From a virus (taxonomy: Duplodnaviria > Caudoviricetes): a stretch of DNA of 56,918 nucleotides. Of this stretch, positions 15,893-56,866 are shown one piece after another. How positions within the stretch are numbered: position 1 is the first letter of the stretch; every line of letters begins with the position of its first letter. The notes under the pieces are model-generated. The model did no database searches, had not been told where the DNA came from, and saw only the letters and a list, made by a program, of their open reading frames with translations. Both the position numbers and the translations under genes were made by a program. The stretch spans positions 1 through 56,918 of the IMG/VR virus record IMGVR_UViG_3300029823_000284; one strand, written 5' to 3'.

Positions 15893-15965
15893 GGGCGGTC
15901 AAAATCTCTGGGACCCTTGTGCCGTGGAACGGGCGGGGGGTCACGCGCGAAAATTCGCGGTTTCA
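15891..15965 (+). other. Putative cos packaging site region
   Basis: GC-rich GGGGCGGTCAAAATCTCT..CGGGCGGGGGTCACGCGCG between HNH and TerS, the usual cos position in HK97-like phages. Confidence 0.55.
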
Positions 15966-16003
15966 AACAGGGAATTAACCTCGGGTAGAAAAGAGGTGGA
16001 AAA

Positions 16004-16555
16004 ATGGCCAAGGATGGAACTAACCGAGGAGGTGCACGTATCGGCTCCGGGCAGAAAAAGAAGCCACTTGCGGACAAAATTGCAGCCGGGAATCCCGGTA
16101 AGCGGAAACTTGAAGTTATAGAATTTAAAAATACCGCTGATCTTCAAGGTCAGGTGATGCCGCAGCCAAGAGCTATGCTTTCAGCAGTTCAGAAGGACGG
16201 AAAAACGCTGGTAGCATCAGAAATATATGAAATTACATGGAAATGGCTTGAAGAACGGGGATGTGCCCATCTTGTTCTTCCGCAGCTTTTAGAACGCTAT
16301 GCCATGAGTGCGGCCAGGTGGATACAGTGTGAGGAAGCAGTAACCGAATTTGGATTTCTTGCCAAGCACCCCACCACAGGCAATGCAATCCAAAGTCCAT
16401 ACGTAGTGATGAGTCAGAACTTCATGAGCCAGACTAATAGACTATGGATGGAAATCTACCAGATTGTCCGTGAAAACTGTGCCACAGAATACAATGGCTT
16501 AAATCCGCAGGACGATGTGATGGAACGACTTCTTACAGCCCGTAGGGGTAAATAA
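16004..16555 (+). CDS. Terminase small subunit (P27 family)
   Basis: GNPGKRKL, QSPYV; position after HNH/cos. Confidence 0.85.
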   Translation: MAKDGTNRGGARIGSGQKKKPLADKIAAGNPGKRKLEVIEFKNTADLQGQVMPQPRAMLSAVQKDGKTLVASEIYEITWKWLEERGCAHLVLPQLLERYAMSAARWIQCEEAVTEFGFLAKHPTTGNAIQSPYVVMSQNFMSQTNRLWMEIYQIVRENCATEYNGLNPQDDVMERLLTARRGK

Positions 16556-16575
16556 AAATAGATTGGAGATGTGAA

Positions 16576-17781
16576 ATGAGCAAAAGATTTTTAACATCTG
16601 AAAGTGTATGTTCCGGTCACCCAGACAAGCTGTGTGACATCATTGCGGATAGCATTTTGGAAGCCTGTCTTCGTAAGGATAAGGCATCCAAGGTAGCATG
16701 TGAAGTTATGGCGACCAAGGGTAGAATTATCGTAGCGGGCGAGATCACCTGCAGCGAAAAGGTCGATATCCGATACATTGTTAGAAATGTGCTTCGGGAT
16801 GTTGGATACAACCCATGGAAGTTTTTGATTTATGTATTTGTGCATAGACAGAGCCAGGATATTGCAGCTGGTGTTAATACAGCACTTGAAGCAAGAGAAG
16901 GTATTAACGAGCAGTATGGTTCTATGGGTGCCGGTGACCAGGGCACTATGTACGGTTATGCAACAGATGAAACGCGAGAGATGCTTCCCCTCCCTCTAGT
17001 ACTCTCACATAGGATCGTGAAGCGATTGGACGATGTCCGCAAAGGTAAACTTATAAAGGGCATTCTTCCAGATGGCAAAGCACAAGTTACAGTGGAATAT
17101 GATGGCGATACTCCTGTAAGAGTAAAAACTATAGTCATTTCAGTTCAGCATAAAGAGGACAAGACTCAAGAGGAACTTCGTTCAGATATTTTAAATAATG
17201 TCCTCTGGCAATGCTTTGAGGATTTTCCTTTTGATAACGATACTGAGATTCTTATAAACCCGTCCGGTAGATTTGTAGAGGGAGGTCCCGCAGCCGATAC
17301 AGGACTTACTGGAAGAAAGCTGATGGTCGATACCTATGGCGGGCTTGCATCCCATGGTGGCGGTGCCCTTTCTGGTAAAGACCCCACCAAGGTTGATAGA
17401 AGCGGCACATATATGGCTCGATACATAGCCAAGCATATTGTTTGGTGCGGCTATGCAAAAAGATGCGAAGTCAGTGTATCCTACGCCATCGGTAAAGCAA
17501 ATCCGGTGGCTTTTTCTGTTAACACTCTAAACACCGGTATTGTGCCTGATGAGATACTAACCCTTGCGGCACAGGAGGTTTTCAGTCTCAAACCTGCTGC
17601 GATTATAGAAAAACTGCGCCTGCGCAACGTAATCTATTCCGATACGGCTGTTTATGGACATTTCAATAGCTGTCTTTTCCCTTGGGAAGATGTAAATAAG
17701 TCCAATGAATTAAGAAAGGCGGTGGAGAAGTATGCTGATAGAGAAGTTGAAGATAGAACAGCTCATCCCTGCCGAGTATAA
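16576..17781 (+). CDS. metK: S-adenosylmethionine synthetase
   Basis: TSESVCSGHPDKLCD, GAGDQG, GLTGRK, GGGALSGKDPTKVDRS. Confidence 0.95.
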   Translation: MSKRFLTSESVCSGHPDKLCDIIADSILEACLRKDKASKVACEVMATKGRIIVAGEITCSEKVDIRYIVRNVLRDVGYNPWKFLIYVFVHRQSQDIAAGVNTALEAREGINEQYGSMGAGDQGTMYGYATDETREMLPLPLVLSHRIVKRLDDVRKGKLIKGILPDGKAQVTVEYDGDTPVRVKTIVISVQHKEDKTQEELRSDILNNVLWQCFEDFPFDNDTEILINPSGRFVEGGPAADTGLTGRKLMVDTYGGLASHGGGALSGKDPTKVDRSGTYMARYIAKHIVWCGYAKRCEVSVSYAIGKANPVAFSVNTLNTGIVPDEILTLAAQEVFSLKPAAIIEKLRLRNVIYSDTAVYGHFNSCLFPWEDVNKSNELRKAVEKYADREVEDRTAHPCRV

Positions 17782-39742: not shown

Positions 39743-39803
39743 ATCCTTGATATACAGGGTACTCAGAGGTAATATGTCACATACCCGAGGGGAGGTGAAA
39801 AGG

Positions 39804-41369
39804 GTGAGAAAGGTAACGAAAATATCATCAGATATGGCATTTGCCGCCATGAAACCAAAACTGCGAGTTGCTGCTTATGCCCGAGTTTCAACAGACAGCG
39901 ATGAGCAGCTAGTCAGTTTGGAGACACAAAAGACCCATTATGAATCCTATATAAAGGCAAATCCGGAATGGGAGTTTGCAGGCATTTATTATGATGAAGG
40001 CATTACTGGCACGAAAAAAGAAAAGCGGACGGAACTGTTACGGCTCATATCAGACTGTGAAAACAAGAAGATAGATTTTATTGTGACCAAGTCCATCAGC
40101 AGATTCGCAAGAAATACTACAGACTTCCTGGAACTTGTAAGAAAGCTGACGGATCTTGGAGTCTTCATTTACTTCGAGAAGGAAAACATCAACACCGGCT
40201 CCATGGACAGTGAGCTGATGCTGACTATATTAAGCAGCTTAGCCGAAAGCGAATCTATTTCTATTTCAGAGAATAATAAATGGTCCATTCAGAGACGGTT
40301 TAGAAACGGGACATATAAGCTGTCATATCCGCCTTACGGATATGATTATGTGGATGGTCATATTGTTGTAAATAAAGAACAGGCAGAAGTTGTTAAGCGT
40401 ATATTTTCTCAAGCCTTATCCGGGAAAGGAACCCAGAAAATTGCCGATGGCTTGAATGCTGATGGTATTGCTGCAAAAAGGGGAAATCACTGGACGGCTA
40501 CTACCATTCGAGGCATTCTTGGCAATGAAAAGTATATCGGTGATGTGATACTACAAAAAACCTATACGGATGAGCATTTTAACAGGCATTATAACTACGG
40601 CGAAAGGGATCGGTACCTAATTGAAAATCACCATGAGGCAATTATCAGCAGAGAGGATTTCGAAGCTGTAGAAGAGGTTTTAAACCAACGTGGAAAAGAA
40701 AAAGGCGTTAAAAAAGGAAGCAGCAAATACCAAAACCGCTATCTCCTCTCTGGAAAGATAAAGTGTTCCGAATGTGGGAGTACTTTTAAACGAAGAATTC
40801 ATGGCAGCGGCAATGGCAAGTATATTGCCTGGTGCTGTTCCAAACATATTCATACCGTTACAGCGTGTTCGATGCGTTTTATTCGAGAGGACGCAATTTA
40901 TCAGGCCTTTGTAGCTATGATCAATAAGCTCATCTTCGGGCATAAGATTGTTCTTAAACCATTATTACAAAGCTTAAGGGCGGTAAACTATTCAGATAAT
41001 CTTGTTCAGATGCAGGAACTTGAAACGAAGATCGAAGATAATATGGAGCGGAGTCAGGTGCTGATGAGTCTTATGACGAAAGGATACCTGGAACCTGCTC
41101 TTTTTAATAAACAAAATAATGTACTACGTAAGGAAGCAGAAATGCTGAAAGACCAAAAAGAAGCCCTTTCCCGTTCAATTAACGGTGGAATGACTATGGT
41201 GGCAGAAGTAGAGCAGCTCTTAAAGTATGTTGCAAAGGCAGAGTTTATTGATTGCTTTGATGAAAAACTTTTTAACCGCTATGTAGAGAAAATCATTGTT
41301 TTCTCACAAGTGGAGATAGGCTTTAAAATGAAATGCGGAGTTACGCTTAAGGAAAGGCTGGTGAGATAA
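39804..41369 (+). CDS. Large serine recombinase 1
   Basis: [22 protein letters not shown], zinc ribbon CSECG. Confidence 0.93.
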   Translation: MRKVTKISSDMAFAAMKPKLRVAAYARVSTDSDEQLVSLETQKTHYESYIKANPEWEFAGIYYDEGITGTKKEKRTELLRLISDCENKKIDFIVTKSISRFARNTTDFLELVRKLTDLGVFIYFEKENINTGSMDSELMLTILSSLAESESISISENNKWSIQRRFRNGTYKLSYPPYGYDYVDGHIVVNKEQAEVVKRIFSQALSGKGTQKIADGLNADGIAAKRGNHWTATTIRGILGNEKYIGDVILQKTYTDEHFNRHYNYGERDRYLIENHHEAIISREDFEAVEEVLNQRGKEKGVKKGSSKYQNRYLLSGKIKCSECGSTFKRRIHGSGNGKYIAWCCSKHIHTVTACSMRFIREDAIYQAFVAMINKLIFGHKIVLKPLLQSLRAVNYSDNLVQMQELETKIEDNMERSQVLMSLMTKGYLEPALFNKQNNVLRKEAEMLKDQKEALSRSINGGMTMVAEVEQLLKYVAKAEFIDCFDEKLFNRYVEKIIVFSQVEIGFKMKCGVTLKERLVR

Positions 41370-41797
41370 TGGGTCATACACCTTACGGATATTTTATTCA
41401 AAATGGAAAAGCAGTCATCGATGAGATGAAGGCAGTACAGGTAAGGGATTTGTATCAAGCATATCTCTCGGGACTCTCTTTAAGAGATGCTTCGAAAAAA
41501 GCAGGTATTAACCGTTATCATGCAACTATTGCCAAAATGCTGACGAATAAGAAGTATCTTGGGGATGAGTACTATCCTCCGATTATCGACAAATACACTT
41601 TTGAACAGGCCCAGGCAGAAAGGTTAAGGCGGGCTCAGATGCTTGGCAGAATACGAAAACCCAAAATGAAAGAGGATGTATCCCAATCTCTGAATTTCAC
41701 AGTCCCTACACCAAAACAGCTTTATGACGATCCATTTAAACAAGCAGAATATGCTTACAGTTTAATAGAAAGTGAGGTGACAATAGATGGCGATTAA
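41369..41797 (+). CDS. Small recombinase-domain protein
   Basis: [19 protein letters not shown]; lacks the catalytic domain. Confidence 0.8.
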
Positions 41798-43352
41798 TAG
41801 AAATGTTACAGTAATACCGGCACGTACCCGTATTGGAAATAACATAAAAACCGAAACTAGACCGAAACTACGTGTCGCTGCTTACTGCCGGGTATCTACT
41901 GACAGTGATGAACAGGCTACCAGCTATGAGGTTCAGATTGAGCATTACACGAACTACATTAAAAATAATCCCGAATGGGATCTGGCCGGAATATTTGCGG
42001 ATGATGGAATCTCGGGAACAAATACCAAAAAGCGTGAGGAATTTAACCGCATGATTGAAGAATGTATGGAAGGCAAAATCGATATGATTATAACCAAGTC
42101 TATCAGCCGATTTGCCAGAAATACGCTGGATTGTTTGAAATATATTCGGCAGCTAAAAGATAAAAACATTCCTGTTTTCTTTGAAAAAGAGAACATTAAC
42201 ACCATGGACTCCAAAGGTGAGATCATGCTCACCATCATGGCATCATTGGCTCAGCAGGAAAGCCAGTCTTTAAGCCAAAACGTGAAGCTGGGCATTCAAT
42301 ACCGTTACCAGCAAGGGGAAATACAAGTCAATCACAAGAGGTTTTTAGGATACACGAAAGACGAAAATAAACGGCTGGTTATTGTTCCTGAAGAAGCGGA
42401 AGTGGTAAAGCGTATCTACCGTGAGTATCTTGAAGGAGCAAGCCTTCTGCAGATAGCACGAGGTCTGGAAGCAGACGGAATTCTTACTGCGGCCAATAAA
42501 CCAAAGTGGAGACCGGAAACGCTGAGGAAGATACTGCAAAATGAAAAGTATATCGGTGACGCGCTACTACAAAAGACTTACACAGTTGATTTCCTCTCAA
42601 AGAAACGGGTGGTTAATAACGGTATTGTTCCTCAGTATTATGTAGAAAACAGCCATGAACCTATTATCCCGCGTGAAATTTTCATGCAGGTTCAGGAAGA
42701 AATGGTTCGAAGAGCAAATTTGCATTCAGGAAAAGGCGGAAAGAAGAGAGTATACAGCAGTAAATACGCTCTTTCTAGTATCGTGTACTGCGGAGAGTGC
42801 GGAGAAATTTACAGGCGGGTTCATTGGAACAACCGAGGATATAAGTCCATTGTCTGGAGATGTGTTAGTAGACTTGAGGAAAAAGGTTCAGACTGTACTT
42901 CCCCGACTATTAATGAGGAAACGTTACAAACAGCGGTTGTAAAAGCTATCAACGAGGTACTAGCCAGCAAGAACACTTTCCTCTCCATATTGCAGGACAA
43001 TATTGCTACCGTCTTAAATGAAGAAAATGACAAGGCTACGGATGAGATTGATAGAAAATTAGATGAACTGCAGAATGAGCTTCTTAGACTGGCAAACTCA
43101 AAGGCTGATTATAACGAAGTGGCTGATGAGATTTACCGCCTGCGAGAACTAAAGCAAAATGCGCTAGTTGAGAATGCAGAGCGTGAAGGAAAGAGACAGC
43201 GGATCGCTGAAATGACAGACTTCTTAAGCCAGCAGTCATGCGAGCTTCAGGAATATGATGAACAACTGGTAAGGCGGCTTATTGAAAGAATTACTGTATT
43301 TGACGACAAGATGACCATTGAGTTTAAATCCAGCGTTAAGATCAATCTTTAA
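41787..43352 (+). CDS. Large serine recombinase 2
   Basis: [26 protein letters not shown]. Confidence 0.93.
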
Positions 43353-44183: not shown

Positions 44184-46739
44184 ATGAGCGATTTACAGTC
44201 ACTTTCGGAATTGTATCAAAATAAATTGTTTCGTATCCCAGATTACCAAAGAGGATATGCCTGGAAACAGGAGCAGCTTGTAGATTTTTGGGATGATATC
44301 TTGAATCTTCAGGAAGATAGGTATCATTATACTGGTTTATTATCATTAAAAGCTGTTGCGAAGGCCGAATCAAAGGGTTGGAGCAACGATAAGTGGTTAC
44401 TTGATTCAGGATATAAGGCCTATCATGTAGTTGATGGGCAGCAACGACTTACCACCTTTTCGATCCTAGTAAATGAGATTGTTTCTTTTGTTAAAGGTTT
44501 AGAGTGCAACGGGGGAAAGACGGATGAGGAGATAGTCCTTTGCTATCAAACCCTTAAAGCTATCCGTTCCAAATATATATCGCAGAAACGACCCCCGCAA
44601 AACCTTATCACTACATACCTTTTTGGATATGAGGTTGACAATCCTAGCGCAGATTATCTTACATACAAAATATTTGAGGAACCGTTTAGCGGTACAGTGA
44701 ATGAAACATATTATACGAAAAATCTGAAGTACGCAAAAGAATTCTTTTTGGATTGTTTGAAAAAACTGTATGCAGCTGAGGGTATAGATGGTATAGAAGC
44801 TGTTTTCCGTAAAATCACTTTACAACTGATGTTTAATATTCATGAGATTGAAGATGACTATGATGTTTTTGTAGCTTTTGAAACAATGAACAATCGTGGT
44901 AAAAAGCTTACGAATCTTGAACTTCTGAAAAACAGACTTATCTATCTGACTACACTTTATGATACTGATAAATTGGATGCGATGGATAAAGCTGAATTAC
45001 GTAAGCAGATCAATGATGCCTGGAAAGAGGTGTATTATCAATTAGGCAGAAATCAGAATTCACCGCTATCAGATGATGAGTTCTTAAGGGCGCATTGGAT
45101 TATGTATTTCCAATACTCCCGTAAAAAAGGCGATGACTATATCAAGTTTCTTCTTAATAAGTTTTCAGCTAAAAACATCTTTGATAAGCAGATAGTTGCC
45201 ATCGAAGAAGAAGTGGCAGAAACTGTTGAGACGGACATTGAAGAAGACGATGATGTGCCACAGCCTACAGAGCCAGAAGCAGAAACAGTAACGACTATCA
45301 GTAAATTAGAGCCTGGAGAAATAGCAGCCTACGTTAATAGCCTAAAAAGCGTTGCAAAATACTGGTTCTATACTTTTTTTCCTGAATTTAGTGATTTAAC
45401 TCACGAAGAAAAAGTTTGGATTGAACGCCTTAATCGTATAGGTATAGGTTATTTTAGACCACTTGTCGCAGCATCATTAACTCCGGACGCAAATGCCACC
45501 CCAGAAGAACGTGTTGAGTTTTTCCGTGCTGCGGAGCGTTTTATTTTCTTATCATTTAGAATGGCAGCATTCCAGTCTAGTTATAAAAGTAGCGATTATT
45601 ACCGCAAGACACGCGATGTATATACAGGTGAACTTTCTTTAAGCGAAGTTACTAAATCGTTAATGGAAACTGCAACTAGTGATATGGATTATGCGATTAA
45701 GAACTTTATGACCCGGATCGATAAACGCTTTTCAAATGGCGATGGTTTTTATGGTTGGCGCGATCTTCGTTATTTGCTTTTTGAATATGAATATGAAAAG
45801 GCAGAAGAAACAGGAATAGAAAAGCTGGGATGGGCTCCATTTACAAAAGTAGAAAAAGATAAAGTATCGATTGAGCATATCCTCCCCCAGACACCAACTA
45901 AATGGTACTGGAAAAATCAGTTCCGTAAGTACACAGAAGATGAGATAAAGATACTTTCTGGTTCGCTTGGCAATTTATTACCGTTGTCTCAGAGTGTAAA
46001 CTCTGCATTGCAGAATGATAGTTTCTCAGATAAAAAATCATCAAACAGCATTGGTAGACGTGGTTATGAGGACGGATCGCACTCCGAAATAGAAGTGTCT
46101 CGAGAAGCCGATTGGGATGCAGAGCGCATATTAAAACGTGGTATTAAGCTTCTAAAATTTGTCGAAACCCGTTGGAACATCCAATTTAAAGATGAAACAC
46201 AGATGCTTGATCTGCTTCATATATCCTTTGTAAATGATGGCCGTGCTGATGTGCCCGAAATACCAGAGCCAGAATTTGAAGAAACAACCGACCAGCCTTC
46301 AGAAACAACAAGAGTACTTTCTGAACGGCATCTATTGCGAATGGATTTTTGGACTAATTTTGTACAGTACTGTCGCAATAATGGGCGTGGAGAGGACATT
46401 GCATCTCGAAAACCATCATATGACGACTGGTACGATGTTTCGGTTAGCAATCCAAACTATCACATTTTCTTTCAGCTTGTTAGAAAGAAAATATTGCGTA
46501 TTGGTATTTATGTGTATCGCCCAGAGTATTTTTCTAAGCTTGAATCTAAAAAGACTGAAATTGAAAGCGTATTTGGTGCTCCCCTAGAGTGGTATACAAG
46601 TCGGGAAAAAAGTGTAGCAAAGAGGATTCTTTACTCTGAAGAAAAAGATATTCATAATCCTGAACTGTATCAGCAGCATTTTGAATGGCTCATCAATCAC
46701 TTTGATAAGCTTAAAAGTGCTCTTGATGCAATCGTTTAA
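44184..46739 (+). CDS. GmrSD-like DUF262/DUF1524 nuclease with DUF4268-like C-terminus
   Basis: [43 protein letters not shown]. Confidence 0.88.
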
Positions 46740-46758
46740 TGAAGGGAGGGAAAACTGA

Positions 46759-48384
46759 TTGATTGGTGCAATTATTGGGGATGTAGTTGGCTCTCGATTT
46801 GAGTTTAATAATCATAGAGATAAAGACTTCGAACTATTTACAGAAGACTGCCAGGTTACAGATGACAGTATTATGACTCTTGCAGTTGCAAAAGCAATTA
46901 TGGAAGCAGAGAAAATAATCAAACCTTCAGTTGGCGGTTATGATTTTGATAGCGACTATTACTCGCTGATTGAAAAAATGACTATTAAATATATGCAGGA
47001 AATTGGGCGTAAATATCCCAATTGTGGTTACGGTGGGATGTTCTCAAAATGGGTTTTTAGTGATGATCCTCAACCCTACAACAGCTTTGGAAATGGTGCG
47101 GCTATGCGGATAAGTCCGGTAGGTTTTGCAGCAAGGACAGAAAGCGAAGCTTGCAGGCTCTCTGAAGTTGTAACTGGAGTGACGCATGATCATGAAGAGG
47201 GCATAAAGGGTGCAGAAGCTACTGCGGTAGCAATTTACATGGCACGTCGTGGATTTACCAAAGGTGAAATTCGAGATAAAATTGAGCGCGATTATTATGC
47301 GTTGGATTTCAGAATAGAAAATATCAGGGGCACTTACAAATTTAACGAGACTTGCCAAGATACCGTACCACAAGCGATTCAGGCTGTTTTAGAATCAACT
47401 TCTTTTGAAGATGCTATACGAACAGCTATTTCCCTTGGTGGCGATAGTGACACACTGGCTGCCATAACAGGTTCTATTGCAGAAGCGTATTATGGAGTGC
47501 CCGAGGAGATCAAAGACAAAGCACTTAATTATCTTGATAGTGATTTGCGGGCTATTTATGATGAGTGGTATGAGTTAATTGGAAATGAAGGTACGATAAA
47601 CAAGCTTAAATTGCTTACAAAATACATTGGTAAAATCTCAGAAGCCGAGTCTTATGGTGAATGGTTTATTGATAAAGAAAATGATGGTACACCTGAGCAT
47701 CCAATCCAAATGCCGTTTGTTAATTTCGGCGATATTGTTAATTCGTTTGTTGGAGATTTTTACCAGTTCTTAGAGGGGCATCCAGAATATCAGCTTACAG
47801 AATATGGTTCGATTCTTGAGGAAAACGGTCTTAAATGGGATGATGCATCTATGCGAAATGCGGATGTCGATGCTTTGAATGAACAATGTTTACTTGCGCT
47901 TATGATGGGTGCAATCCGTGCAGAAAGATTCTGTGATGGAGCGCTTCTAAGCTTTTTCAAAGACGGCTATATGTTGAAATGGCTAAAGCGACTGAAAGCT
48001 ATCGATGACAGCAAGGTTTCAACAACGATTGAGGAAATTTATTTTGAAATAGGTGGATATGGTGGAAATGATACGTATCGAATTACAGTAAATAATAATT
48101 CTGCTACACTTATAACGACACTGTGGTGCGAAGAGCCGATTGAAAAACAATATTCGCCAGAAGAAACAAGAATGCTCCTTAATGCCTTTGAGGACCTTCA
48201 TGTTGGCTACTGGAATAGTGAGTATATAGATCCCTGTGTTTGTGATGGAACGCAATGGGAGCTGGCAGTTAAATATAAGGGGCAGCGAGGTACTGTATGG
48301 GTTGGCAGCAATGCTTATCCAGGTAACTGGGATGACCTCTTGTCCATTTTCGGAATCGATTATGAAGATGATGAAGACGCTTAA
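46759..48384 (+). CDS. ADP-ribosylglycohydrolase with C-terminal accessory domains (DUF6508-like)
   Basis: GDVVGSRFE, TDDSIMT, SFGNGAAMR, THDH, GGDSDT; ERFCDG motif. Confidence 0.88.
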   Translation: MIGAIIGDVVGSRFEFNNHRDKDFELFTEDCQVTDDSIMTLAVAKAIMEAEKIIKPSVGGYDFDSDYYSLIEKMTIKYMQEIGRKYPNCGYGGMFSKWVFSDDPQPYNSFGNGAAMRISPVGFAARTESEACRLSEVVTGVTHDHEEGIKGAEATAVAIYMARRGFTKGEIRDKIERDYYALDFRIENIRGTYKFNETCQDTVPQAIQAVLESTSFEDAIRTAISLGGDSDTLAAITGSIAEAYYGVPEEIKDKALNYLDSDLRAIYDEWYELIGNEGTINKLKLLTKYIGKISEAESYGEWFIDKENDGTPEHPIQMPFVNFGDIVNSFVGDFYQFLEGHPEYQLTEYGSILEENGLKWDDASMRNADVDALNEQCLLALMMGAIRAERFCDGALLSFFKDGYMLKWLKRLKAIDDSKVSTTIEEIYFEIGGYGGNDTYRITVNNNSATLITTLWCEEPIEKQYSPEETRMLLNAFEDLHVGYWNSEYIDPCVCDGTQWELAVKYKGQRGTVWVGSNAYPGNWDDLLSIFGIDYEDDEDA

Positions 48385-48415
48385 ACACATGTTAAAAAGA
48401 ATCTTGAGGTGTTAA

Positions 48416-49252
48416 ATGCTTAGTATTGAGGAATACATTGTCCGCAGGAAAAAAGAAGATAAGCTCAATGAATTTGACCTTGATGCACGTACTCAAAACA
48501 TGAAGCTCTGTGTGGATTATGTATTTGAGTACTTTAATAATTATCTGAATATTAGGGAGGCTGAAGAAAAAACAGTATTACATAGTGAAAAGCTGGAGAA
48601 ATATCGTAAGCAGCTTAGAGAGTATGAGCCTGAAGTTAGAGAATGGGTTGTTGGCATTTATAGTGAGTATGGGAAGCAAATACACAGATACATTGGAAAC
48701 ATTATGAAAGGAAATGAGTTTTTCTTTCTGTATGATACTGATAGTGAATTTAGAAATGCTTCATATGATTGCTACTCAAGGCTTATTAAAAGATTGCCGT
48801 TTCTTAAGGATCAGACCGAAATGCTTTTTCTTTTTATAAAGGACTATCATAGGGTAGAGAGCGAGCAAAGGTTTAATTTCGGAATACCATCAATATCGGA
48901 AGAAATAACTGATTGGATCGATAAAACCTGGGCAAAGCACCAAGTTAATCTTCTTGCCTTTGCTTATGATTGGATTAATAGTTTTTACGAAAATGAGGAT
49001 ATTTGGCCATCAACACATAGAAAGAAGAGCCAATATACTTGGAGAAAGTACGATTACGATTATAGGCAGAAAAGTAATCTCTTTAATCTTGATTCACTAT
49101 ACAGAAAGATGCCAAAAAAATCCTTTATAAAAGGAAGAAAGCAGGAATTCGAGATTTTGTTTATGTACTATTGGCTTCATGATATGGAAGGCGATAATGA
49201 TTATTGGCAAGAGTATATGGACACAGTCCTTCCGAAATTAAAGAATAAATAA
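48416..49252 (+). CDS. Hypothetical protein
   Basis: 278 aa ORF with GAGGTG RBS; no motif recognised. Confidence 0.7.
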   Translation: MLSIEEYIVRRKKEDKLNEFDLDARTQNMKLCVDYVFEYFNNYLNIREAEEKTVLHSEKLEKYRKQLREYEPEVREWVVGIYSEYGKQIHRYIGNIMKGNEFFFLYDTDSEFRNASYDCYSRLIKRLPFLKDQTEMLFLFIKDYHRVESEQRFNFGIPSISEEITDWIDKTWAKHQVNLLAFAYDWINSFYENEDIWPSTHRKKSQYTWRKYDYDYRQKSNLFNLDSLYRKMPKKSFIKGRKQEFEILFMYYWLHDMEGDNDYWQEYMDTVLPKLKNK

Positions 49253-49282
49253 AAATATGATTTAGAAAAAACGAGAGAGGAC

Positions 49283-50452
49283 ATGATGTTGAATCCGTTA
49301 AAATATTTAAGAATTTGGAACAATGAAGATTGTCCATGCGGCAGTGGTAAGAAGTACATTAACTGTTGCAAAAATAAAGAACCTATACCACAACAGTTAT
49401 CAAAAAAACCTCCTGAGGTTCAAGTTATGGAAATGATGAGAAAATCCATGGCTAAGTGTTGTATGCACCCAGACCAGGAACATTGCAAGGGAAAAATTAA
49501 AGATGCGCATGCTTTACAGAATAATAAGATCATATCGTTGCTTGCAGGAAGTGAAAGACATGTTTATATGCTTGATCCCAAAAAGCAACCATTATTAATT
49601 CCAATGAATAATGGCAAAACTGAAATGATTATTGAGATAAGCCGGATAAGTGCAAATCAAGCTACTACAGAAACATGCTTTTGTGATTTACACGATAATA
49701 TTGCTTTTGCAATAATTGAAAAAGGCGCGCCGGATTTTGATGAATTGAACGAAGAAATGAAATTCGTTTATGCATATAAAGCATTTATTTTTGAATATTA
49801 TAAGCAACGCATGGCCATAGATATTTTTAGAGCAAGTTTTGCAAAACAGCCATTTGCATTCAAATCACTCACGATGATTGGAATGTACAGGATGTTGCAA
49901 TTAAAAATGCGTGAATTTGAACCCATAAAAGAACATTTCGACAGGGAGATTCTTGCTAAAAAGCATGGAGGTATTGAAACGTGTGTTGTGAAAATACCAG
50001 AACAGATCAAATTCGCGGTTTATGCTTATATTGCCCCTGATTACGATTTGGATGGAAATAAAATTAAACATACCGTTAAAGGTGTTATGCATCGGCTTGC
50101 TGTGACTGTTTTTCCTGAAGAGAGTCAATCATATATTTTATTAAGCTGTTTGAAAAGCGAAAAACCGATATATGAGGGATTATTTAAACAGCTTCGGAGT
50201 TATTCAATAGATAAGATTAAATTCTATATGTCGATGGTTTTACCATTGTATTCAGAAAATATGGTGTTGAGTCCCGCCTTATGGAGATCTTGGGATGATG
50301 AAACTAAGATGGCATATACTTTTTATGCAAATTTAAACGGGCCAAACGCAGCTGTTTACAGTAAGTGCATTGGGATGGGGATACGGAATGCTGCTAAAAG
50401 TAGATCAAGTTATGACTATAGTAAACGAGGCAAAATTGACTTATTTATTTAA
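49283..50452 (+). CDS. SEC-C motif protein, possible HNH-like metal site
   Basis: CPCGSGKKYINCC; C..C..AHALQ..FCDLHDN. Confidence 0.75.
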   Translation: MMLNPLKYLRIWNNEDCPCGSGKKYINCCKNKEPIPQQLSKKPPEVQVMEMMRKSMAKCCMHPDQEHCKGKIKDAHALQNNKIISLLAGSERHVYMLDPKKQPLLIPMNNGKTEMIIEISRISANQATTETCFCDLHDNIAFAIIEKGAPDFDELNEEMKFVYAYKAFIFEYYKQRMAIDIFRASFAKQPFAFKSLTMIGMYRMLQLKMREFEPIKEHFDREILAKKHGGIETCVVKIPEQIKFAVYAYIAPDYDLDGNKIKHTVKGVMHRLAVTVFPEESQSYILLSCLKSEKPIYEGLFKQLRSYSIDKIKFYMSMVLPLYSENMVLSPALWRSWDDETKMAYTFYANLNGPNAAVYSKCIGMGIRNAAKSRSSYDYSKRGKIDLFI

Positions 50453-50469: not shown

Positions 50470-50546
50470 GTTGATATGTTCCCTCGGACGTCTGTTTTCC
50501 AAAAAACAGCCAAAATGCCGTTGATATGTTTCCACGAACGCATGGT
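50470..50546 (+). repeat. Two copies of an rlmD-like VDMFPRT segment, 50 bp apart
   Basis: GTTGATATGTTCCCTCGGACG (50470) and GTTGATATGTTTCCACGAACG (50520). Confidence 0.65.
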
Positions 50547-50562
50547 TAAAAAATCGGCTCCA

Positions 50563-50611
50563 GACATCAATGCCATCAACTCAAGCCACGTTGAGACGGT
50601 CGTATTGATGT
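50563..50611 (+). mobile_element. attR-like serine-recombinase site (right arm completed at 52513 after intron removal)
   Basis: 22-bp arms, 17/22 inverted identity (GACATCAAT..CTCAA gcCAcg TTGAG..ATTGATGT|C), centred on CA 50587-50588. Confidence 0.72.
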
Positions 50612-52512
50612 GTGCGTCCAGCTAAGCTGGCAAATGCTAGCAGGTGAAAGTCCTGCAGTGGTAAAGGTAGGGCAGCCACTTAGTCAGTAACCAGCGTATG
50701 GTGTAATCTATGCGTTGAAGCGTTACGGAATGTTCCGTAAGGAGCAGGCAAACTGGCGGGTTGTAACATAAAGTGAATACTGCCGCACCGTTATTTACAT
50801 TTCCGAAAGGAAACAACAGGGAGTCGAGCTGCGACATCAACAGCAAAGACAGAAGACGGTATGAAGAACCCTAAATGCAATACCTAAGAACCCTGCGGTG
50901 TAGAGGTAACGACACGTCAGGAAAGTATTTGTCGGAACTGGAGAGAGCCTACTTTGCACAGGAAACTGTAAAGAGGAAGCATATAAGCAAAAGCGAAGTT
51001 GCTTTCTGCAAAGAGGCAGTCAGAAGTGCTCATAGTACCAAGGATTGTACAGACAACAAAACTGTGCATAGGGAAGGGGCACAACTTTATTCAAGTCTGT
51101 AAAGGAGGTAGGTGCCGGTGATTGCCGAAAAAGCTATAAACACCCATGAAAAAGTACGAGACTTCCAAAACAGACTATACCTTACAGCCAAAGCTGACCG
51201 AAAGAGAAAGTTCTATGCGTTGTATGACAAGATATACCGTAATGATATCTTAGAAGAAGCATGGAAACGGGTAAAACAGAATGGTGGAACAGGCGGTATT
51301 GACAAAGTCAGCATTGATGATGTGAAAACGTACGGTGAAGAAAAACTACTGGGCGAAATAGCGGAAGAATTGAGGACTGGGAAGTACCGGTGTAAGCCTG
51401 TCAGACGAAGCTATATTCCAAAACCAGATGGTAGAAAAAGAGCATTGGGGATACCTACGATTAAGGACAGAATAGTACAGATGGCGGCAAAGATAGTGAT
51501 AGAGCCGGTGTTTGAAGCAGATTTTCAACCCTGTTCGTATGGATTTAGACCGAAACGAAGTGCTAAACAAGCAATGGACAGGATATTTGAAGTGTCCGAC
51601 AAAGGTGGTGCACTATGGGTAATAGATGCTGACATAAAAGATTATTTTGGTAGCATCAACCATGATAAGCTAATTTTGTTGCTCAAACAAAGAATAACTG
51701 ACCGTAGAGTATTAAAGCTGATAAATAGTTGGTTAAAAGCAGGAGTGCTGGAAAACGGATGGTACAGTGAAAGTATACTGGGAGCACCGCAGGGTGGAGT
51801 TATTTCTCCACTATTGTCCAACATATATCTGAATTATTTTGATGTGTATTGGAATAAAGCCTTTGGACATCTGGGTGAATTAGTGCGTTATGCAGATGAT
51901 TTTGTGATATTGTGTAAGAGGTTATCTCATGCAGAAGAAGCCTTGCGCGCTGTGAAGTGGATTATGGAAAAACTGGAACTAACGCTTCACAGTGAGAAAA
52001 CAAGACTGGTTGATATGTATTTTGGTAAAGGTAGTTTTGATTTTCTTGGCTTCAATAATAGATTTCAGCGTTTTAGAAATAAAAACTGGCAGTGGTATTG
52101 GACACTACAACAGATACCGTCTAAGAAGGCTATGAAGAAAATGAGAGCTAACATAAAAGAGGTATTTAACAGTCCTAGCAAGCTGCTGCTAAGTATGGAA
52201 GAGATGGTGAAGCTACTCAATCCTAAAATCATTGGCATGAGGAACTATTATACCAGACGATTTAGCAGACCATGGTTATGGAAGATAGATAAGTATATAA
52301 ATTTCAAGTTTACTCGGTGGTACAATCGGAAGAAACAACGCAATTATAGGCTAGGAAGTGCAGCAAAGGTCAGAGAATTGACTAAACAGGCAGGACTAGC
52401 AAATATGTGCGGCTGAATGCTGAAGGAAGAAGAATATCGGAAAGCCGTATGCGGGAAAATCGCACGTACGGTTTGATGAGGGGACGGTGGTAAACCCACT
52501 GTTCTACTCTAT
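50612..52512 (+). mobile_element. Group II intron (1901 nt)
   Basis: 5' GTGCG at 50612; domain V AGCCGTATGCG..CGCACGTACGGTT near 52443-52473; domain VI and ..CTACTCTAT 3' end; EBS1 ACATCAA (50834-50840) complementary to exon TTGATGT. Confidence 0.93.
51112..52416 (+). CDS. ltrA: Group II intron reverse transcriptase/maturase lacking endonuclease domain
   Basis: LGIPTIKDRIVQ, SYGFRP, PQGGVISPLLSNIYL, RYADDF, FDFLGF, domain X; GTG start after AAGGAGG. Confidence 0.93.
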   Translation: MPVIAEKAINTHEKVRDFQNRLYLTAKADRKRKFYALYDKIYRNDILEEAWKRVKQNGGTGGIDKVSIDDVKTYGEEKLLGEIAEELRTGKYRCKPVRRSYIPKPDGRKRALGIPTIKDRIVQMAAKIVIEPVFEADFQPCSYGFRPKRSAKQAMDRIFEVSDKGGALWVIDADIKDYFGSINHDKLILLLKQRITDRRVLKLINSWLKAGVLENGWYSESILGAPQGGVISPLLSNIYLNYFDVYWNKAFGHLGELVRYADDFVILCKRLSHAEEALRAVKWIMEKLELTLHSEKTRLVDMYFGKGSFDFLGFNNRFQRFRNKNWQWYWTLQQIPSKKAMKKMRANIKEVFNSPSKLLLSMEEMVKLLNPKIIGMRNYYTRRFSRPWLWKIDKYINFKFTRWYNRKKQRNYRLGSAAKVRELTKQAGLANMCG

Positions 52513-52557
52513 CAAGGGTTGATAAATAAAAGCGAAAAAGTGCTTGATATAAAGGGA

Positions 52558-52882: not shown

Positions 52883-53065
52883 ATGAATAATAAATCAAAA
52901 ATATGTGGGAGACCTCCCGGTAAAGTAAAAACAGCCAAAATTGAAGTAGCCATAGAACCAGAAATCAAAAAAGAATTCATGGAATTATTGGCTCTCGAAG
53001 GGAAAAAAGCTTCAATTGAAATTGGTACGTGGATACGGGAGTATATAAAGTCCCGAAAGGAGTAA
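52883..53065 (+). CDS. Ribbon-helix-helix-like controller protein
   Basis: GRPPG..KIEVAIEPEIKKEF..IREYI; GGAGGAG RBS; leads the MTase operon. Confidence 0.65.
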   Translation: MNNKSKICGRPPGKVKTAKIEVAIEPEIKKEFMELLALEGKKASIEIGTWIREYIKSRKE

Positions 53066-53071
53066 TAAAAT

Positions 53072-54004
53072 ATGAGAATTCTATCCCTATTTAGTGGATG
53101 TGGGGGTTTAGATAAAGGCTTTCAAAATGCTGGCTATGACATTGTATGGGCAAATGATTTTGATAAATATGCTGTTCAGACATATAAGGAGAATTTTGGT
53201 GACCACATCGTGCTTGGAGATATAAACGATATCCCTCTTGAGGAACTGCCAGATTTTGATGTCTTAATAGGTGGGTTCCCTTGTCAACCGTTTAGCATGA
53301 TGGGTGAAAAAAGAGGTTTTGAAGACGCTCGTGGAACTCTTTTTTTTAGAATAGCAGAAATAATAAAATATAAAATAGATAAAAATGAAAAGCCAAAAGT
53401 AGTTGTTTTGGAAAATGTACGTTCATTACGCACCCATGATAAAGGAAGGACATTCAAAACAATCTTAAATATCTTAGAAAAAGATTTGGGTTATAAGGTC
53501 TTTACAGATGTATTGAATACAGCTGATTATGGTATTCCGCAAACAAGAAACAGAACATATATCGTTTGTTTTGCAAATGAAAATGCAGAGTTTTTGTTTC
53601 CGGAAAAGCAGGAGCTTGATTTAACATTGCAAGATCTATTGGAACACAATGTTGATCAGAAATATTTTTTATCTGATAGGATATTGCCAACCATCTTATC
53701 TAATGGAACGGGTGGATATAAGGCTAAATCAGAAATTGATTTGGAAATAGCAAGACCGTTATGTGCAACTATGGCAAAAATGCACAGAGCTTGCCAAGAT
53801 AATTATGTTACACAAAATGGTAGAGTAAGGCGTCTCACTCCCCGTGAATGTGCGAGACTGCAGGGATTTGATGACGATTTTGTAATCCCTGTTTCTGATT
53901 CACAAGCATATAAGCAATTTGGAAATGCAGTTACTGTTAATGTTTCGCAAGCAGTTGCAGAAAAGATTAAAGATGTATTATTAGAATTAGGAGAATGGGC
54001 ATAA
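53072..54004 (+). CDS. C5 cytosine DNA methyltransferase 1
   Basis: SLFSGCGG, GGFPCQPFS, ENV, PQTRNR, QFGNAV. Confidence 0.95.
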   Translation: MRILSLFSGCGGLDKGFQNAGYDIVWANDFDKYAVQTYKENFGDHIVLGDINDIPLEELPDFDVLIGGFPCQPFSMMGEKRGFEDARGTLFFRIAEIIKYKIDKNEKPKVVVLENVRSLRTHDKGRTFKTILNILEKDLGYKVFTDVLNTADYGIPQTRNRTYIVCFANENAEFLFPEKQELDLTLQDLLEHNVDQKYFLSDRILPTILSNGTGGYKAKSEIDLEIARPLCATMAKMHRACQDNYVTQNGRVRRLTPRECARLQGFDDDFVIPVSDSQAYKQFGNAVTVNVSQAVAEKIKDVLLELGEWA

Positions 54005-55437
54005 TGGAGAGTTTCAATTTCAATAAAGATAAAGAAGAAATTAATTCTATATTATCATCTATTTATAATAAGGATTATAATTTTGATAAGAATAAAGCAC
54101 AGACTGTGCTAGACTATATAGCTTCAGCGGTAGGTAACGAATACTTAGATGGACGTGGTTCCATATTTAAACAGTCAGCAAAAAAATCTCAAAAAATAGG
54201 TAAATTACTTACAGCATTATACGATGATTGTTGTGGTACGCAAAAGTGTAATGAATGTGTTATATCCAAGTATTGTAATAGTTATATTCGCAATCGTATT
54301 GAAAATTATGACCACAACGCACCAGTCATGATCGATTTATTTTGTGGGGCTGGTGGTCTTTCTTTAGGCTTTACACAAAGCGGTTTCATTACAAGTTTAG
54401 CAAATGACATAGAGCCTTGTTGCGTAGATACATATGCACATAATCATCCGGAAACACCTAGGGAACACATTATACTTGGTGATATTAATGATGTTATTGA
54501 TAATATTGAAAATCTACAGAGGTTTGATGAGGTTGATGTTGTTGTGGGAGGCCCACCATGCCAAGGATTTAGCATGGCTAATAGACAACGACTCATTGAT
54601 GATCCGCGTAATAAGCTCTATAAGAGTTATGTTAAAGTTGTATCAATGGTCCAGCCAAAGTTTTTCGTAATGGAAAATGTGAAAGGTATGAAATCTGTAT
54701 CCACTCAAGTAATAGAAGATTTTGAGAACATTGGATATTCAGTTTCATGCAGGATACTAAACGCTAAGGATTATGGAGTGCCACAAAATCGAGAAAGACT
54801 AATTTTTATTGGCAATAGAGTTGAGATAAATAACGATGAATTATTCGATGAAATTGAAGGACTTTCTGAGGCAATTCCTAATACTGTTTTAGCAGATGCA
54901 CTATTTGGATTAAGGGAACTCGAAGCATCTAGAAAGAAAAATGCTACAGAAGTAGACTCTGAGATATCAGGAAAGAAAATTGAAAAAAAGACTTCAGTTG
55001 TTGAAAATGATTATATTCAGTTTATTAATCAAAATCGAAACTGTCCCATAGTGTTTAATCATAAGGCTAGGTATAATAATGATCGAGATATAGAAATATT
55101 TGGAAGGCTTAACCAAGGTGATAGATCAGATGATCCTAAGATTGCAGATATCATGCCTTATAGTAGAAGAAATGACATTTTTAAAGATAAGTATTTTAAA
55201 CTTGAGGAAAATAAAGTATGTAAAACCATAACGGCTCATATGAAGTTTGACTGTAATATGTATATACATCCAACACAAGCGCGTGGACTAACTCCAAGAG
55301 AGGCCGCAAGGGTGCAATCATATCCAGATGATTACTTTTTCCGGGGTGCATATACAAAAACATATATGCAAATAGGAAATTCAGTACCCCCTCTTTTAGG
55401 TCGAGCTATAGCGGAAGTAATTAAAAATTATTTATAA
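53995..55437 (+). CDS. C5 cytosine DNA methyltransferase 2 with Cys-rich N-terminal extension
   Basis: DLFCGAGG, GGPPCQGFS, ENV, PQNRER, QIGNSVPP. Confidence 0.93.
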   Translation: MGIMESFNFNKDKEEINSILSSIYNKDYNFDKNKAQTVLDYIASAVGNEYLDGRGSIFKQSAKKSQKIGKLLTALYDDCCGTQKCNECVISKYCNSYIRNRIENYDHNAPVMIDLFCGAGGLSLGFTQSGFITSLANDIEPCCVDTYAHNHPETPREHIILGDINDVIDNIENLQRFDEVDVVVGGPPCQGFSMANRQRLIDDPRNKLYKSYVKVVSMVQPKFFVMENVKGMKSVSTQVIEDFENIGYSVSCRILNAKDYGVPQNRERLIFIGNRVEINNDELFDEIEGLSEAIPNTVLADALFGLRELEASRKKNATEVDSEISGKKIEKKTSVVENDYIQFINQNRNCPIVFNHKARYNNDRDIEIFGRLNQGDRSDDPKIADIMPYSRRNDIFKDKYFKLEENKVCKTITAHMKFDCNMYIHPTQARGLTPREAARVQSYPDDYFFRGAYTKTYMQIGNSVPPLLGRAIAEVIKNYL

Positions 55438-55441
55438 TGAG

Positions 55442-56866
55442 GTGAAGAGTATGACATTTAATGAAGCAATCGAAAGAATTCAAAGCGTTTTAGCCTTGAT
55501 AGGTACAACAATTGATAAAAATGTTTATGATGGGATTATCGTTAAGAAGTTAGAGGCATCTAATACCCTTGACGACGGAAGAACGACAAATCAGACGCAT
55601 ATAGCCATAACTGGAGTTCAAATGGATATTTTCCCATATCTTCGGTCAGATGGGTACTTCAATGATTCTGAATCAGATGCGGACTTAAAGAAATACTTTA
55701 TAACTCAAGTACCAATGATTTTAACGAAGTCTAATGTAGAGTATCTTGACCGTAATAGTGAAGGTTCAAACATATCTTTTACCTCTGATAAAAAACGTTC
55801 GGTAACATCTGTTGTTAGGGGTAAAAGACGAGCACAAGCTGATCAAATACAAGTATCTCTAATCAACTTCGATGGGGAAGACTTTATTGCCTTTAGAAGA
55901 TTATTGCATGCAGGCTCCTATTTAATAATTTTGAAGAAGCACCAATTATTTGAGTATGAGTGTTATGGCGTTATCCCGAATCGTGGTATTGATGAAGATG
56001 GTGGCCTGCAGGAACTGAATAATCAATTCTTTAAATTAGCAACTAATACAAGAGTAAACGTAGAGATGCTTGGAGAAATTGATTATGATTACGCTGATAG
56101 AATAACAGGTGGAAAGAATATCCTTCTATATGGTGTTCCTGGCTCTGGAAAGAGCTGGACTATTGAGCATGAATATTGCAACGAAGATAGCATTGTTGAT
56201 CGTTTGGTTTTCCATCCAGATTATACAAATGCAGATTTCGTTGGACAGATTCTGCCTGTGGTAGACGAGGATAAACAAGTTACATATGAATTCACACCTG
56301 GACCATTTACTACGATTCTTTCTAATGCATATCGCAATCCGATGAGCAAATACATCCTTATAATTGAGGAAATTAATCGTGGTAATGCACCTGCTATTTT
56401 TGGAGAGATATTCCAACTGCTTGATCGAAAAGTTGAGATGCAGGATGGCGATGATGGTTTTCCAGTAGGAACGAGCGAGTATGGTATTACCCATAAATAC
56501 ATGGCTGAATTTATTTATGGAAATCCAGCACATAAGGTTCGCATCCCTTCCAACCTTTCTATAATTGGCACAATGAATACATCTGACCAGAATGTATTCA
56601 CTCTTGATACTGCGTTCCAACGTAGATGGCGGATGAGACTTATTGAGAATAACTTTGACAATGTACGTCCTTCGCTGGCTGATGCAGAAATTTTAGATAC
56701 TGATGTTACTTGGAAACGCTTCTGTGAAACTGTAAATACAATTATCGTTGGAAACAAAGCTAAAATGGCATCTGCTGAGGATAAGCGCCTCGGTGTATAT
56801 TTTGTTCATGAAAATGATCTTAAATTTGACTCAAGAGCACTTCTGTCAACGCCGGAAAAGAAATGA
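55442..56866 (+). CDS. McrB-like AAA+ GTPase (LlaJI R1-like), probably truncated by IS insertion
   Basis: GVPGSGKS, FHPDYT..DFVG, IEEINRGN, GTMNTSDQN, AFQRRW; last codons overlap IS-like end. Confidence 0.85.
   Translation: MKSMTFNEAIERIQSVLALIGTTIDKNVYDGIIVKKLEASNTLDDGRTTNQTHIAITGVQMDIFPYLRSDGYFNDSESDADLKKYFITQVPMILTKSNVEYLDRNSEGSNISFTSDKKRSVTSVVRGKRRAQADQIQVSLINFDGEDFIAFRRLLHAGSYLIILKKHQLFEYECYGVIPNRGIDEDGGLQELNNQFFKLATNTRVNVEMLGEIDYDYADRITGGKNILLYGVPGSGKSWTIEHEYCNEDSIVDRLVFHPDYTNADFVGQILPVVDEDKQVTYEFTPGPFTTILSNAYRNPMSKYILIIEEINRGNAPAIFGEIFQLLDRKVEMQDGDDGFPVGTSEYGITHKYMAEFIYGNPAHKVRIPSNLSIIGTMNTSDQNVFTLDTAFQRRWRMRLIENNFDNVRPSLADAEILDTDVTWKRFCETVNTIIVGNKAKMASAEDKRLGVYFVHENDLKFDSRALLSTPEKK

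Follow-up and report, generated by a model that had tools for sequence, protein, structure and literature searches.

Bacterial group II introns have mostly been viewed as loosely targeted passengers of mobile DNA, and few lineages with a precise niche are known. IIC introns lie behind terminators and the IIC-attC introns home to integron attC sites; besides these, the stop codon of groEL, held by one IIB1 clade, is the precise niche recognized so far. Here we describe another, the 3′ coding tail of rlmD (also called rumA). It is occupied by an intact group II intron in a 56,918-nt virus record (IMG/VR IMGVR_UViG_3300029823_000284, positions 1 to 56,918; Duplodnaviria; Caudoviricetes), which was assembled from a fermentation metagenome and is called the window below, at its full length. 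Our analyses indicate that this intron very probably belongs to an endonuclease-less lineage that homes to a sequence in the rlmD tail, that this sequence doubles as a half-site of serine recombinases, and that the introns are sometimes nested in the elements using it. Site-specialized group II introns nested in recombination sites were already known; what is new is the match of an RNA guide to a half-site of serine recombinases, one that is also a gene tail and is copied by the elements. No description of this association was found in the papers searched on group II introns with rumA, rlmD, serine recombinases or attB, and supplements might list such insertions.

The closest described systems each share part of this arrangement. 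Like the IIC-attC introns, the window intron is endonuclease-less and of a lineage nested in the recombination sites of another mobile system. IIC-attC introns, however, use a DNA hairpin and an exon-binding site 1 (EBS1) of 3-4 nt, whereas the window intron has a 7-8-bp EBS1 pairing with covariation. Their site is attC or a terminator; ours is a serine-recombinase half-site in a coding tail, with an RF02003 ribozyme. Passages of PMC12584367 describe IIC introns as targeting DNA hairpins, and present the groEL stop-codon introns (Avi.groEL and EcKTE56.groEL) as a IIB1 clade faithful to the 3′ end of a housekeeping gene at low host cost. The likeness to the groEL introns, as portrayed in those passages, is that a whole clade keeps to the very 3′ end of a single conserved housekeeping gene. 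According to the same passages, the groEL introns have a IIB1/CL1 reverse transcriptase (RT) and a subdomain Ia of 300-700 nt, and lie within the stop codon; in contrast, the window intron has no endonuclease (En) domain, no large Ia was seen in its domain 1 (D1), and its site doubles as an attachment (att) half-site. RmInt1 of Sinorhizobium meliloti, an endonuclease-less IIB intron, homes into ISRm2011-2, and a replication-fork route is ascribed to it in PMC8914252 and PMC12584367. It resembles the window intron in its length of ~1.9 kb, its RT without a DNA-binding/endonuclease (D/En) region and its target inside another mobile element. It differs in target and hosts, and plasmid-borne RTs, including those of Sinorhizobium, are at most 52% identical to the window RT.

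On the recombinase side, passages of PMC4701971 name rumA as a primary target of single serine integrases, those of streptococcal integrative and conjugative elements and of C. difficile CTn5, whose attR falls within the gene for the integrase. These rumA elements and islands of Firmicutes, as presented there, have the att system in common with our locus, and an attR in the 3′ end of the integrase recurs in an island of Herbinix hemicellulosilytica T3/55T (C10, below). The element adjoining the window site is unlike those single-integrase elements, with two large serine recombinases ~7 kb from the att site. The same passages make no mention of an intron in rumA att sites.

The intron and its target site

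The features at the insertion site are given below. Here and throughout, counts that include metagenome-derived sequences (130, 129, 75, 33 and the like) are counts among the matches listed.

50562-50586, + strand: left (P) half-site, AGACATCAAT-N8-CTCAAGC (inverted repeat; consensus of 75 left arms)
50587-50588, + strand: CA core, presumed crossover dinucleotide, first and second bases of the HVETVVLM His codon
50589-50611, + strand: right half-site, consisting of rlmD 3′ coding sequence (..VETVVLM), with intron-binding site 1 (IBS1) at 50605-50611; conserved in 130 flanks
50599-50604, + strand: candidate IBS2, GTCGTA, within the right half-site
50612-52512, + strand: intact group II intron, 1901 nt (RF02003 and RF00029; full-length alignment with 27 other copies; exact skip in DNA contigs)
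50778-50783, + strand: candidate EBS2, UACUGC, intron positions 167-172; potential partner GTRGTR, exon positions -13 to -8
50828-50844, + strand: predicted EBS1 hairpin, stem GCUG/CAGC, loop CG-ACAUCAA, with EBS1 at 50834-50840
51112-52416, + strand: intron-encoded RT/maturase, 434 amino acids, in domain IV (Pfam RVT_1 1.1e-35, GIIM 3.8e-08)
52440-52512, + strand: ribozyme domains V and VI (RF00029, 57.3 bits, cut-off 40, full model covered)
52513-52529, + strand: 3′ exon, 17 nt; C52513 is IBS3/delta′, followed by (S)RVDK and the stop of an rlmD-type tail

Direct reading places the intron's first bases, GTGCG, at 50612 and its 3′ end, ...CTACTCTAT (..CTAT), at 52512, so that both the GUGYG 5′ end and the AY 3′ end of group II introns are present. 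Its D1-D4 core matches Rfam RF02003 (D1-D4-4) over the full model (50638-50771, 88.9 bits, cut-off 49), its D5 has an AGC triad, and the ribozyme without the open reading frame (ORF) comes to ~596 nt. The encoded protein is recognized by NCBIfam TIGR04416 (group II RT/maturase; 421 bits, cut-off 300), and YADD can be read in its translation. Scanning it against Pfam gave RVT_1 and GIIM only and no D/En domain, as had been claimed from the sequence at first; since the protein stops 22 amino acids past GIIM, there is no room for a DNA-binding/endonuclease region. Among the loci L002-L029, the RT ORF is full-length in 27 of 28. Joining the exons restores ..SSHVETVVLM/SRVDK-stop (a slash marks the insertion point throughout), while translation without splicing would end in ..VLMCASS-stop. 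The span noted originally, 50563-52529, corresponds to the intron with the left arm and the 17-nt rlmD tail.

With its RT lacking the D/En region, the intron falls with the endonuclease-less bacterial classes, for which the names D, E and F appear in passages of PMC3552965 and PMC3753933. Its nearest solved RTs are of the IIC type (5hhj, 1.3e-54), with LtrA (2.8e-45) and the maturase RT of PDB 6me0 (1.3e-42) not far behind, and this comparison does not decide the class. By its target recognition the intron is unlike IIC and IIC-attC introns and was not assigned to them, on account of the covarying 7-nt EBS1, the weak hairpin that holds IBS1 and the 22-26 copies without a dyad. Assignment to the groEL IIB1 clade was likewise rejected: there is no endonuclease domain, D1 opens with ordinary short helices and insertion is five codons before the stop.

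The site itself is laid out as AGACATCAATGCCATCAACTCAAGC - CA - CGTTGAGACGGTCGTATTGATGT / intron. Two 24-nt arms (50561-50584 and 50591-50614) form a 75% complementary inverted repeat centred on CA, and the intron lies between +23 and +24 from that CA, one base short of the end of a conserved 9-nt outer motif, ATTGATGT/C. These coordinates confirm the original observation that the intron inserts at TTGATGT/C, one base inside the outer end of the CA-centred repeat. On the bottom strand, the left arm also reads TTGATGT/C (GACATCAA at 50563).

Comparison of copies locates the boundary between the two arms. The left flanks of 129 rlmD-oriented copies diverge immediately left of one dinucleotide, which in almost every copy is CA, and the attL/attR pair of Herbinix C8 points to the same position. 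Taken from 75 independent left arms, the consensus GACATCAAT-N8-CTC-N3-C followed by CA mirrors the right arm (CA-yGTtGAG-N8-aTTGATGTC) with equal spacing, which is the expected look of two half-sites that would be bound by one recombinase dimer. Of the marks of a large-serine-recombinase att site, the imperfect dyad around a 2-bp core is given by these two arms, and recombinase genes were found upstream in the window and on Herbinix contigs C8, C9 and C10. The 23 bp after the His-codon CA look to serve elements with serine recombinases, whose crossover would be at CA, as their right half-site. As a separate observation, the attB right half-site resembles a P-type half-site. Because attL resembles attB and attR resembles attP, tandem arrays would be expected, and arrays of elements and remnants at rlmD are indeed seen.

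Site fidelity and base pairing

Site choice was surveyed in two ways. A similarity search with the RT returned 30 loci, one of them a viral contig and the others in genomes, whose introns are 79-100% identical at the DNA level, and a metagenome collection was scanned with a 32-nt intron-internal pattern, giving at least 119 stretches with at least 120 copies; since the pattern is internal to the intron, the flanks of the latter were not pre-selected. Together with the window this makes at least 151 copies, from which 5 with short flanks and 16 duplicates were removed to leave 130 unique flanks. Their contexts come from metagenomes of at least 16 studies and from many Clostridia-type genomes. 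A few copies were seen only as 5′ ends at contig borders, and L135 and its viral twin L288 represent a 45-nt 5′ remnant of the intron.

All 130 unique left flanks carry the ...CAYGTNGAG-N8-TTGATGT/ site in identical register. In 129 the intron is in the rlmD orientation, at HVE(T or C)VVLM/S, and in the remaining one (L195) it occupies the mirrored left arm on the other strand. Among the 30 loci found through the RT, the intron follows ..GTNGAG-N8-(T or A)TGATG(T or A), and every 5′ exon translates as ..HVE(T or C)V..(L or M)M; none of the close homologues collected sits at an unrelated site. The proposed specialization for the rlmD-3′ integration hotspot is therefore borne out. That att sites are targeted was right as to the site, but the target is primarily the rlmD coding tail, recognized by base pairing and not through a dyad or hairpin. 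The suggestion that the intron can also use the left arm, read on the opposite strand, is supported by L195 (1 of 130), where the intron 5′ end adjoins ..CGAGCCGCTTGGATTGATGT, the reverse complement of the L008 left arm, and where the right arm at the junction reads ..GTAATATTGTTAAT, without IBS1.

The pairing that could account for this fidelity is direct. EBS1, ACATCAA at 50834-50840, is the exact complement of IBS1, TTGATGT at 50605-50611, the final seven bases of the 5′ exon, in keeping with the earlier reading of the 50828-50844 loop as complementary to the arm. G50833 stands opposite C52513, the first base of the 3′ exon, so that a G-C pair across the junction lies beside the 7-bp EBS1-IBS1 helix; the +1 exon base is C in 27/27 copies with a 3′ flank available. 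An RNA consensus fold of 19 copies gives the hairpin GCUG-CGACAUCAA-CAGC, whose stem shows compensatory changes (alignment columns 219/231: UA 13, CG 4, UG 2). The pairing itself covaries. At EBS1 column 224 against exon position -2, the 54 alignable unique copies comprise 46 C-G, three U-G and three U-A pairs, one A-A mismatch and one gapped, and in L025 an IBS1 of TTGATGA is accompanied by an EBS1 of UUAUCAA (223/-1). EBS1 changes along with IBS1, and the EBS1-IBS1 pairing is real. A sub-lineage beginning GCGCG instead of GTGCG (L092, L120, L122, L154, L161, L187, L193 and L177) was also noticed; it is inserted after TTGATAA with an EBS1 of AUAUCAA, in which -2 is compensated and -1 is an A-A mismatch.

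The fold that had been called for to confirm the exon-binding sites thus delivered the predicted EBS1 hairpin, while for EBS2 RNAalifold places the candidate segment inside a helix. Full pairing with the candidate EBS2 is available at 68/99 occupied versus 32/71 intron-less sites (Fisher p = 0.003), two sets that differ in source. Mutual information, calculated for all variable columns among intron positions 1-300 against exon bases -26 to -1, recovered EBS1 pairs only and no covarying EBS2; the candidate shows no covariation because the segment is invariant. In passages of PMC3753933, EBS2 is dispensable for splicing in classes IIE and IIF.

Introns 79-93% identical and with Clostridia-like rlmD tails were also seen in bins assigned to distant phyla: metagenome-assembled genomes (MAGs) of Burkholderiales (L003) and Actinomycetota (L004), a Sumerlaeota bin (L026) and a Thermotogae bin (L027). 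Either mis-binning or wide horizontal transfer would explain them.

Elements that share the target, and competing readings

The sequences left of the introns show how often the site is contacted by other elements. In L006 and on Herbinix contig C8, the ORF preceding the site encodes RlmD (TIGR00479, 397 and 330 bits). By stated rules, the 130 unique left flanks divide as follows.

rlmD: 22
P arm, consensus GACATCAAT-N8-CTC-N3-C: 75
other: 33

By eye, the last group contains 4 degenerate rlmD flanks, 5 degenerate P arms, several further families and L195. Thus ~20% of the listed copies have rlmD itself on the left and the remainder adjoin element ends; the 22-26 copies in plain rlmD lack the dyad. 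Use of the hotspot is heavy in the absence of the intron as well. Across 301 genomes from the order to which Herbinix belongs, the intron-less pattern CAYGTNGAR-N3-GT-N4-TTGATGTC gave 74 matches in 50 genomes and 0 in a reversed-pattern control, and of 72 that were classified ~38 are contiguous with rlmD and ~34 are junctions. The rlmD-contiguous share is smaller among intron-bearing sites (26/130 versus ~38/72, p = 3e-6). Enrichment at element junctions is possible and unproven because the effect depends on the dataset, with the metagenome set driving it; abundant elements in digesters or selection against insertion in a working rlmD would both produce it.

Herbinix hemicellulosilytica T3/55T illustrates the relationship best. 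It has two introns, 100% identical to each other and 99.95% to the window intron. On contig C8, rlmD ends ..VDMFPNTV-H-VECVVLMTRL-stop, and past CA come a small helix-turn-helix gene and a type I methylase. The attL reads rlmD-CA-CGTTGAGTGCGTAGTATTGATGA/CGCGGCTGTAAGCC... Its attR counterpart is found 23.7 kb downstream, where a left-arm junction ~4.6 kb past a recombinase gene fragment has a tail that looks native (SRKDK-stop). From this arrangement it follows that the left end of the element (P′) mimics the rlmD tail. In six loci from other families (L005, L006, L010, L011, L016 and L021) the intron is followed by the C8-type left-end sequence GTAAGCCTTGATTTTACTGG; 3 of the 6 have rlmD to the left of the intron and so are arranged as an attL whose element arm contains the intron. 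On contig C10, the intron (15614-17514) is preceded by a left arm (C10:15589), and an intron-less tail site with nearly the same 3′ tail is found ~25.5 kb on, at 41132. The interval holds helicases, DUF4391, methylases, a restriction endonuclease and an IS66 transposase, and at its right end a 558-amino-acid serine recombinase has its stop codon within the CA-TGTTGA core, an arrangement that matches the rumA-type serine-integrase elements in the passages of PMC4701971. The C10 intron therefore occupies the left end of a defence island of 25.5 kb that bears its own recombinase; it is to the right of the crossover and would leave with the island. Contig C9 has two junctions 3 kb apart (C9:11860 and C9:14919), of which the second alone is occupied (intron at C9:14944).

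Based on these observations, we propose the following model. The homing site would be the 8-nt TTGATGT/C, possibly plus the GTRGTR just upstream; it encodes ..VLM/S, five codons before the rlmD stop, and the intron RNA would locate it by base pairing, with EBS1 ACAUCAA and the adjacent G spanning the insertion point. Prophages and defence islands would use the same 23 bp as their right half-site, cross over at CA and have a left end (P′) that duplicates the rlmD tail. Because the elements carry this copy, integration leaves one copy at rlmD (attL) and displaces the other (attR). The intron target is thereby present in attB, attP, attL and attR, with a mirror image on the opposite strand of the P arm. 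These copies would serve as extra, mostly harmless landing pads. An intron right of the crossover at an element's left end would be physically part of the element and should leave with it, and co-transfer of introns with elements may follow. Priming at replication forks would be expected of an RT without an endonuclease.

If correct, the model links two mobile systems, with an RNA-paired retroelement targeting a sequence that serine recombinases bind and that elements copy to repair rlmD. It would also offer a natural system in which to ask how endonuclease-less introns choose and reach their targets. The intron could serve as a boundary marker for rlmD-integrated islands, where assemblies often break at the intron, and as a test case for the effect of a nested intron on att-site behaviour, which is relevant to serine integrases as genome-engineering tools.

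The intron is probably active, with current splicing and retrohoming suggested by sequence comparison. Introns that are 100% identical (L008/L009) or 99.9% identical (L015/L016) lie in contigs of different organisms and have flanks that differ on both sides. Empty sites are represented by DNA contigs of a related sample, possibly of other strains, that skip exactly 1901 nt.

Several results weigh against the model, at one or another of its steps. Split by source, rlmD-contiguous sites make up 15/103 of the metagenome set, and the genome loci alone do not differ from the intron-less sites (11/27 versus 38/72, p = 0.37). In two studies, contigs from RNA libraries span 50605-52518 in tiled fashion with 0-1 differences, which is compatible with transcription, but they could be of DNA origin; a spliced joint was sought in the assembled contigs of two RNA libraries and none was seen. 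No carrier was present among 50,697 phage records, in which the top hit reaches 66% identity over 30% of the query, and no plasmid RT is more than 52% identical to the intron RT. Six viral contigs match in IMG/VR, most of them cut inside the intron or with the intron at a contig end. The window is without an attL, and its flanks were sought in the Herbinix assembly and not found. For EBS2, UACUGC is a candidate and a lead only. Homing is not saturating: Herbinix has four intron-less sites, three with a perfect TTGATGT/C, beside the two occupied ones.

Other readings of the locus were weighed against this evidence. The intron might be a dedicated hyper-parasite of serine-recombinase elements, homing to all att sites, travelling in attP and biasing recombination. 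We regard this as doubtful; if true, the guide would be reading the outer motif of the recombinase half-site (ATTGATGTC), and the split of that motif at its last base might lower excision, block tandem super-integration or make attP function depend on context.

It is unlikely that the lineage is specialized for the rlmD tail only, with incidental att contact and no spread with elements. The 22-26 copies in plain rlmD without a dyad would fit such pure host-gene homing, as would the rlmD-contiguous share among genome loci, which does not differ from that of intron-less sites, and the failure of the phage and plasmid searches to find a free carrier. However, the C10 intron lies right of the crossover at the left end of an island, in six other genomes the intron precedes the conserved left end of the C8 element, and the L195 copy sits in a P arm, that is, in element DNA on the other strand. 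The original idea that the intron spreads with the elements is thus favoured by introns inside elements (C10 and the six other genomes); free carriage by phages or plasmids was not found.

Interference with recombination, in which the intron locks the prophage in place or blocks further integration, is compatible with homing to the shared tail, and we consider it improbable. Insertion does split the 9-nt outer motif ATTGATGT/C that is mirrored in 75 P arms, and many occupied sites lie in tandem arrays and remnants. Nevertheless, 23 bp of the half-site are kept intact and only the outermost base is altered, from C to G. The claim of locking through damage to attR found no support, and no evidence against an effect on excision was seen either. 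Intron-less sites too have tandem arrays, as at Herbinix C9:11860 and C8.

Recognition of the att dyad as a hairpin in single-stranded DNA, in the manner of IIC and IIC-attC introns, is very unlikely. It would suit the ~80% of copies at dyad-type or other element junctions, the endonuclease-less RT with its nearest solved relatives among IIC RTs, and the missing EBS2 covariation. The predicted fold of the dyad, however, is no more stable than that of shuffled controls (-8.7 kcal/mol, z = -0.76; 47/200 shuffles as good), and IBS1 lies within the stem while EBS1 is 7-8 nt long with compensatory changes. Copies are also found in dyad-less rlmD and beside unrelated left flanks, and the ribozyme has a D5 AGC and ~596 nt without its ORF. 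Finally, an immobile intron spread solely by element ends recombining at CA is scarcely credible: several perfect intron-less targets stand beside the occupied ones in Herbinix and speak for it, but 27 copies with introns 78-100% identical have many different right-flank tails, the identical L008 and L009 introns differ in both flanks, L195 is in mirrored orientation and the RT ORFs are intact.

Surroundings of the window and distant relatives

Left of the site, the window carries phage-type genes and then a recombinase module; further features are as follows.

39747-43352, + strand: recombinase module of the left-hand element, with large serine recombinases at 39747-41369 and 41787-43352 and a small Recombinase-domain ORF at 41369-41797 between them
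50470-50497 and 50520-50547, + strand: two direct copies of a remnant resembling the left (B) arm of rlmD, a 28-nt direct repeat, 79% identical
52883-56866, + strand: right-side defence-type genes, comprising a 60-amino-acid ORF, two cytosine-C5 methyltransferase-like ORFs and a McrB-like AAA_5 protein

Both large recombinase ORFs have the Pfam domains Resolvase, Recombinase and Zn_ribbon_recom, and their best NCBIfam resemblance is to CcrB/XisF-type proteins, below cut-offs. About 7 kb of defence-type cargo separates them from the att site; within it (44184-50452) are GmrSD, an ADP-ribosylglycohydrolase with DUF6508 and a SEC-C-motif protein. A promoter and terminator scan gave nothing above chance, and the stretch from the preceding + strand ORF to the intron has no called terminator, so that read-through from the cargo genes would be a plausible source of transcript.

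Of rlmD itself the window holds the last 8-9 codons only, and the gene body is absent. On the right, AAA_5 was assigned by domain search and the methyltransferase labels come from translations alone. This flank (52883-56866) may belong to the host or may open a second island as its left end. Its genes resemble those carried by the Herbinix and L006 elements at their left ends, and its similarity to other loci stops after 110-240 nt. At the left ends of related elements (L212, L006 and L291) there are type I restriction-modification genes, type III restriction-modification-like genes and a large P-loop NTPase-like ORF, the motif of which was recognized by eye.

Upstream of almost every GACATCAAT left arm there is a B-arm-like remnant, GTNGAYATGTTYCC-N6-ACG-CA, which encodes VDMFPxT(H) and either adjoins the left arm or lies ~20 nt away; examples are the Herbinix C8, C9 and C10 junctions, L088, L096 and L123. 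The remnant in the window, GTTGATATGTTYCC...ACG, encodes VDMFPRT. Such remnants could belong to a composite attP, be scars of serial integration or form the binding site of a second recombinase. The att region left of the core in the window (50473-50588) is 79% identical to positions 46624-46739 of MK448997.1 (Streptococcus phage Javan630), which are the right end of a Streptococcus uberis prophage record; the related att architecture therefore reaches streptococcal phages.

More distant RT relatives (L030-L080, for example L039, L047, L049, L053 and L075), with 43-54% identity and RF02003 as well, occur in MAGs of Acidobacteriota, Planctomycetota and Spirochaetota, and some are present in several copies per genome. 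All that were examined lie directly after an ATG, 5-8 nt downstream of a -10-like box (TATCAT, TAGACT, TATACT and others). They look like a second site-specialized clade, perhaps with leaderless start codons as its targets, and specialization for a site may thus be a trait of the wider group.

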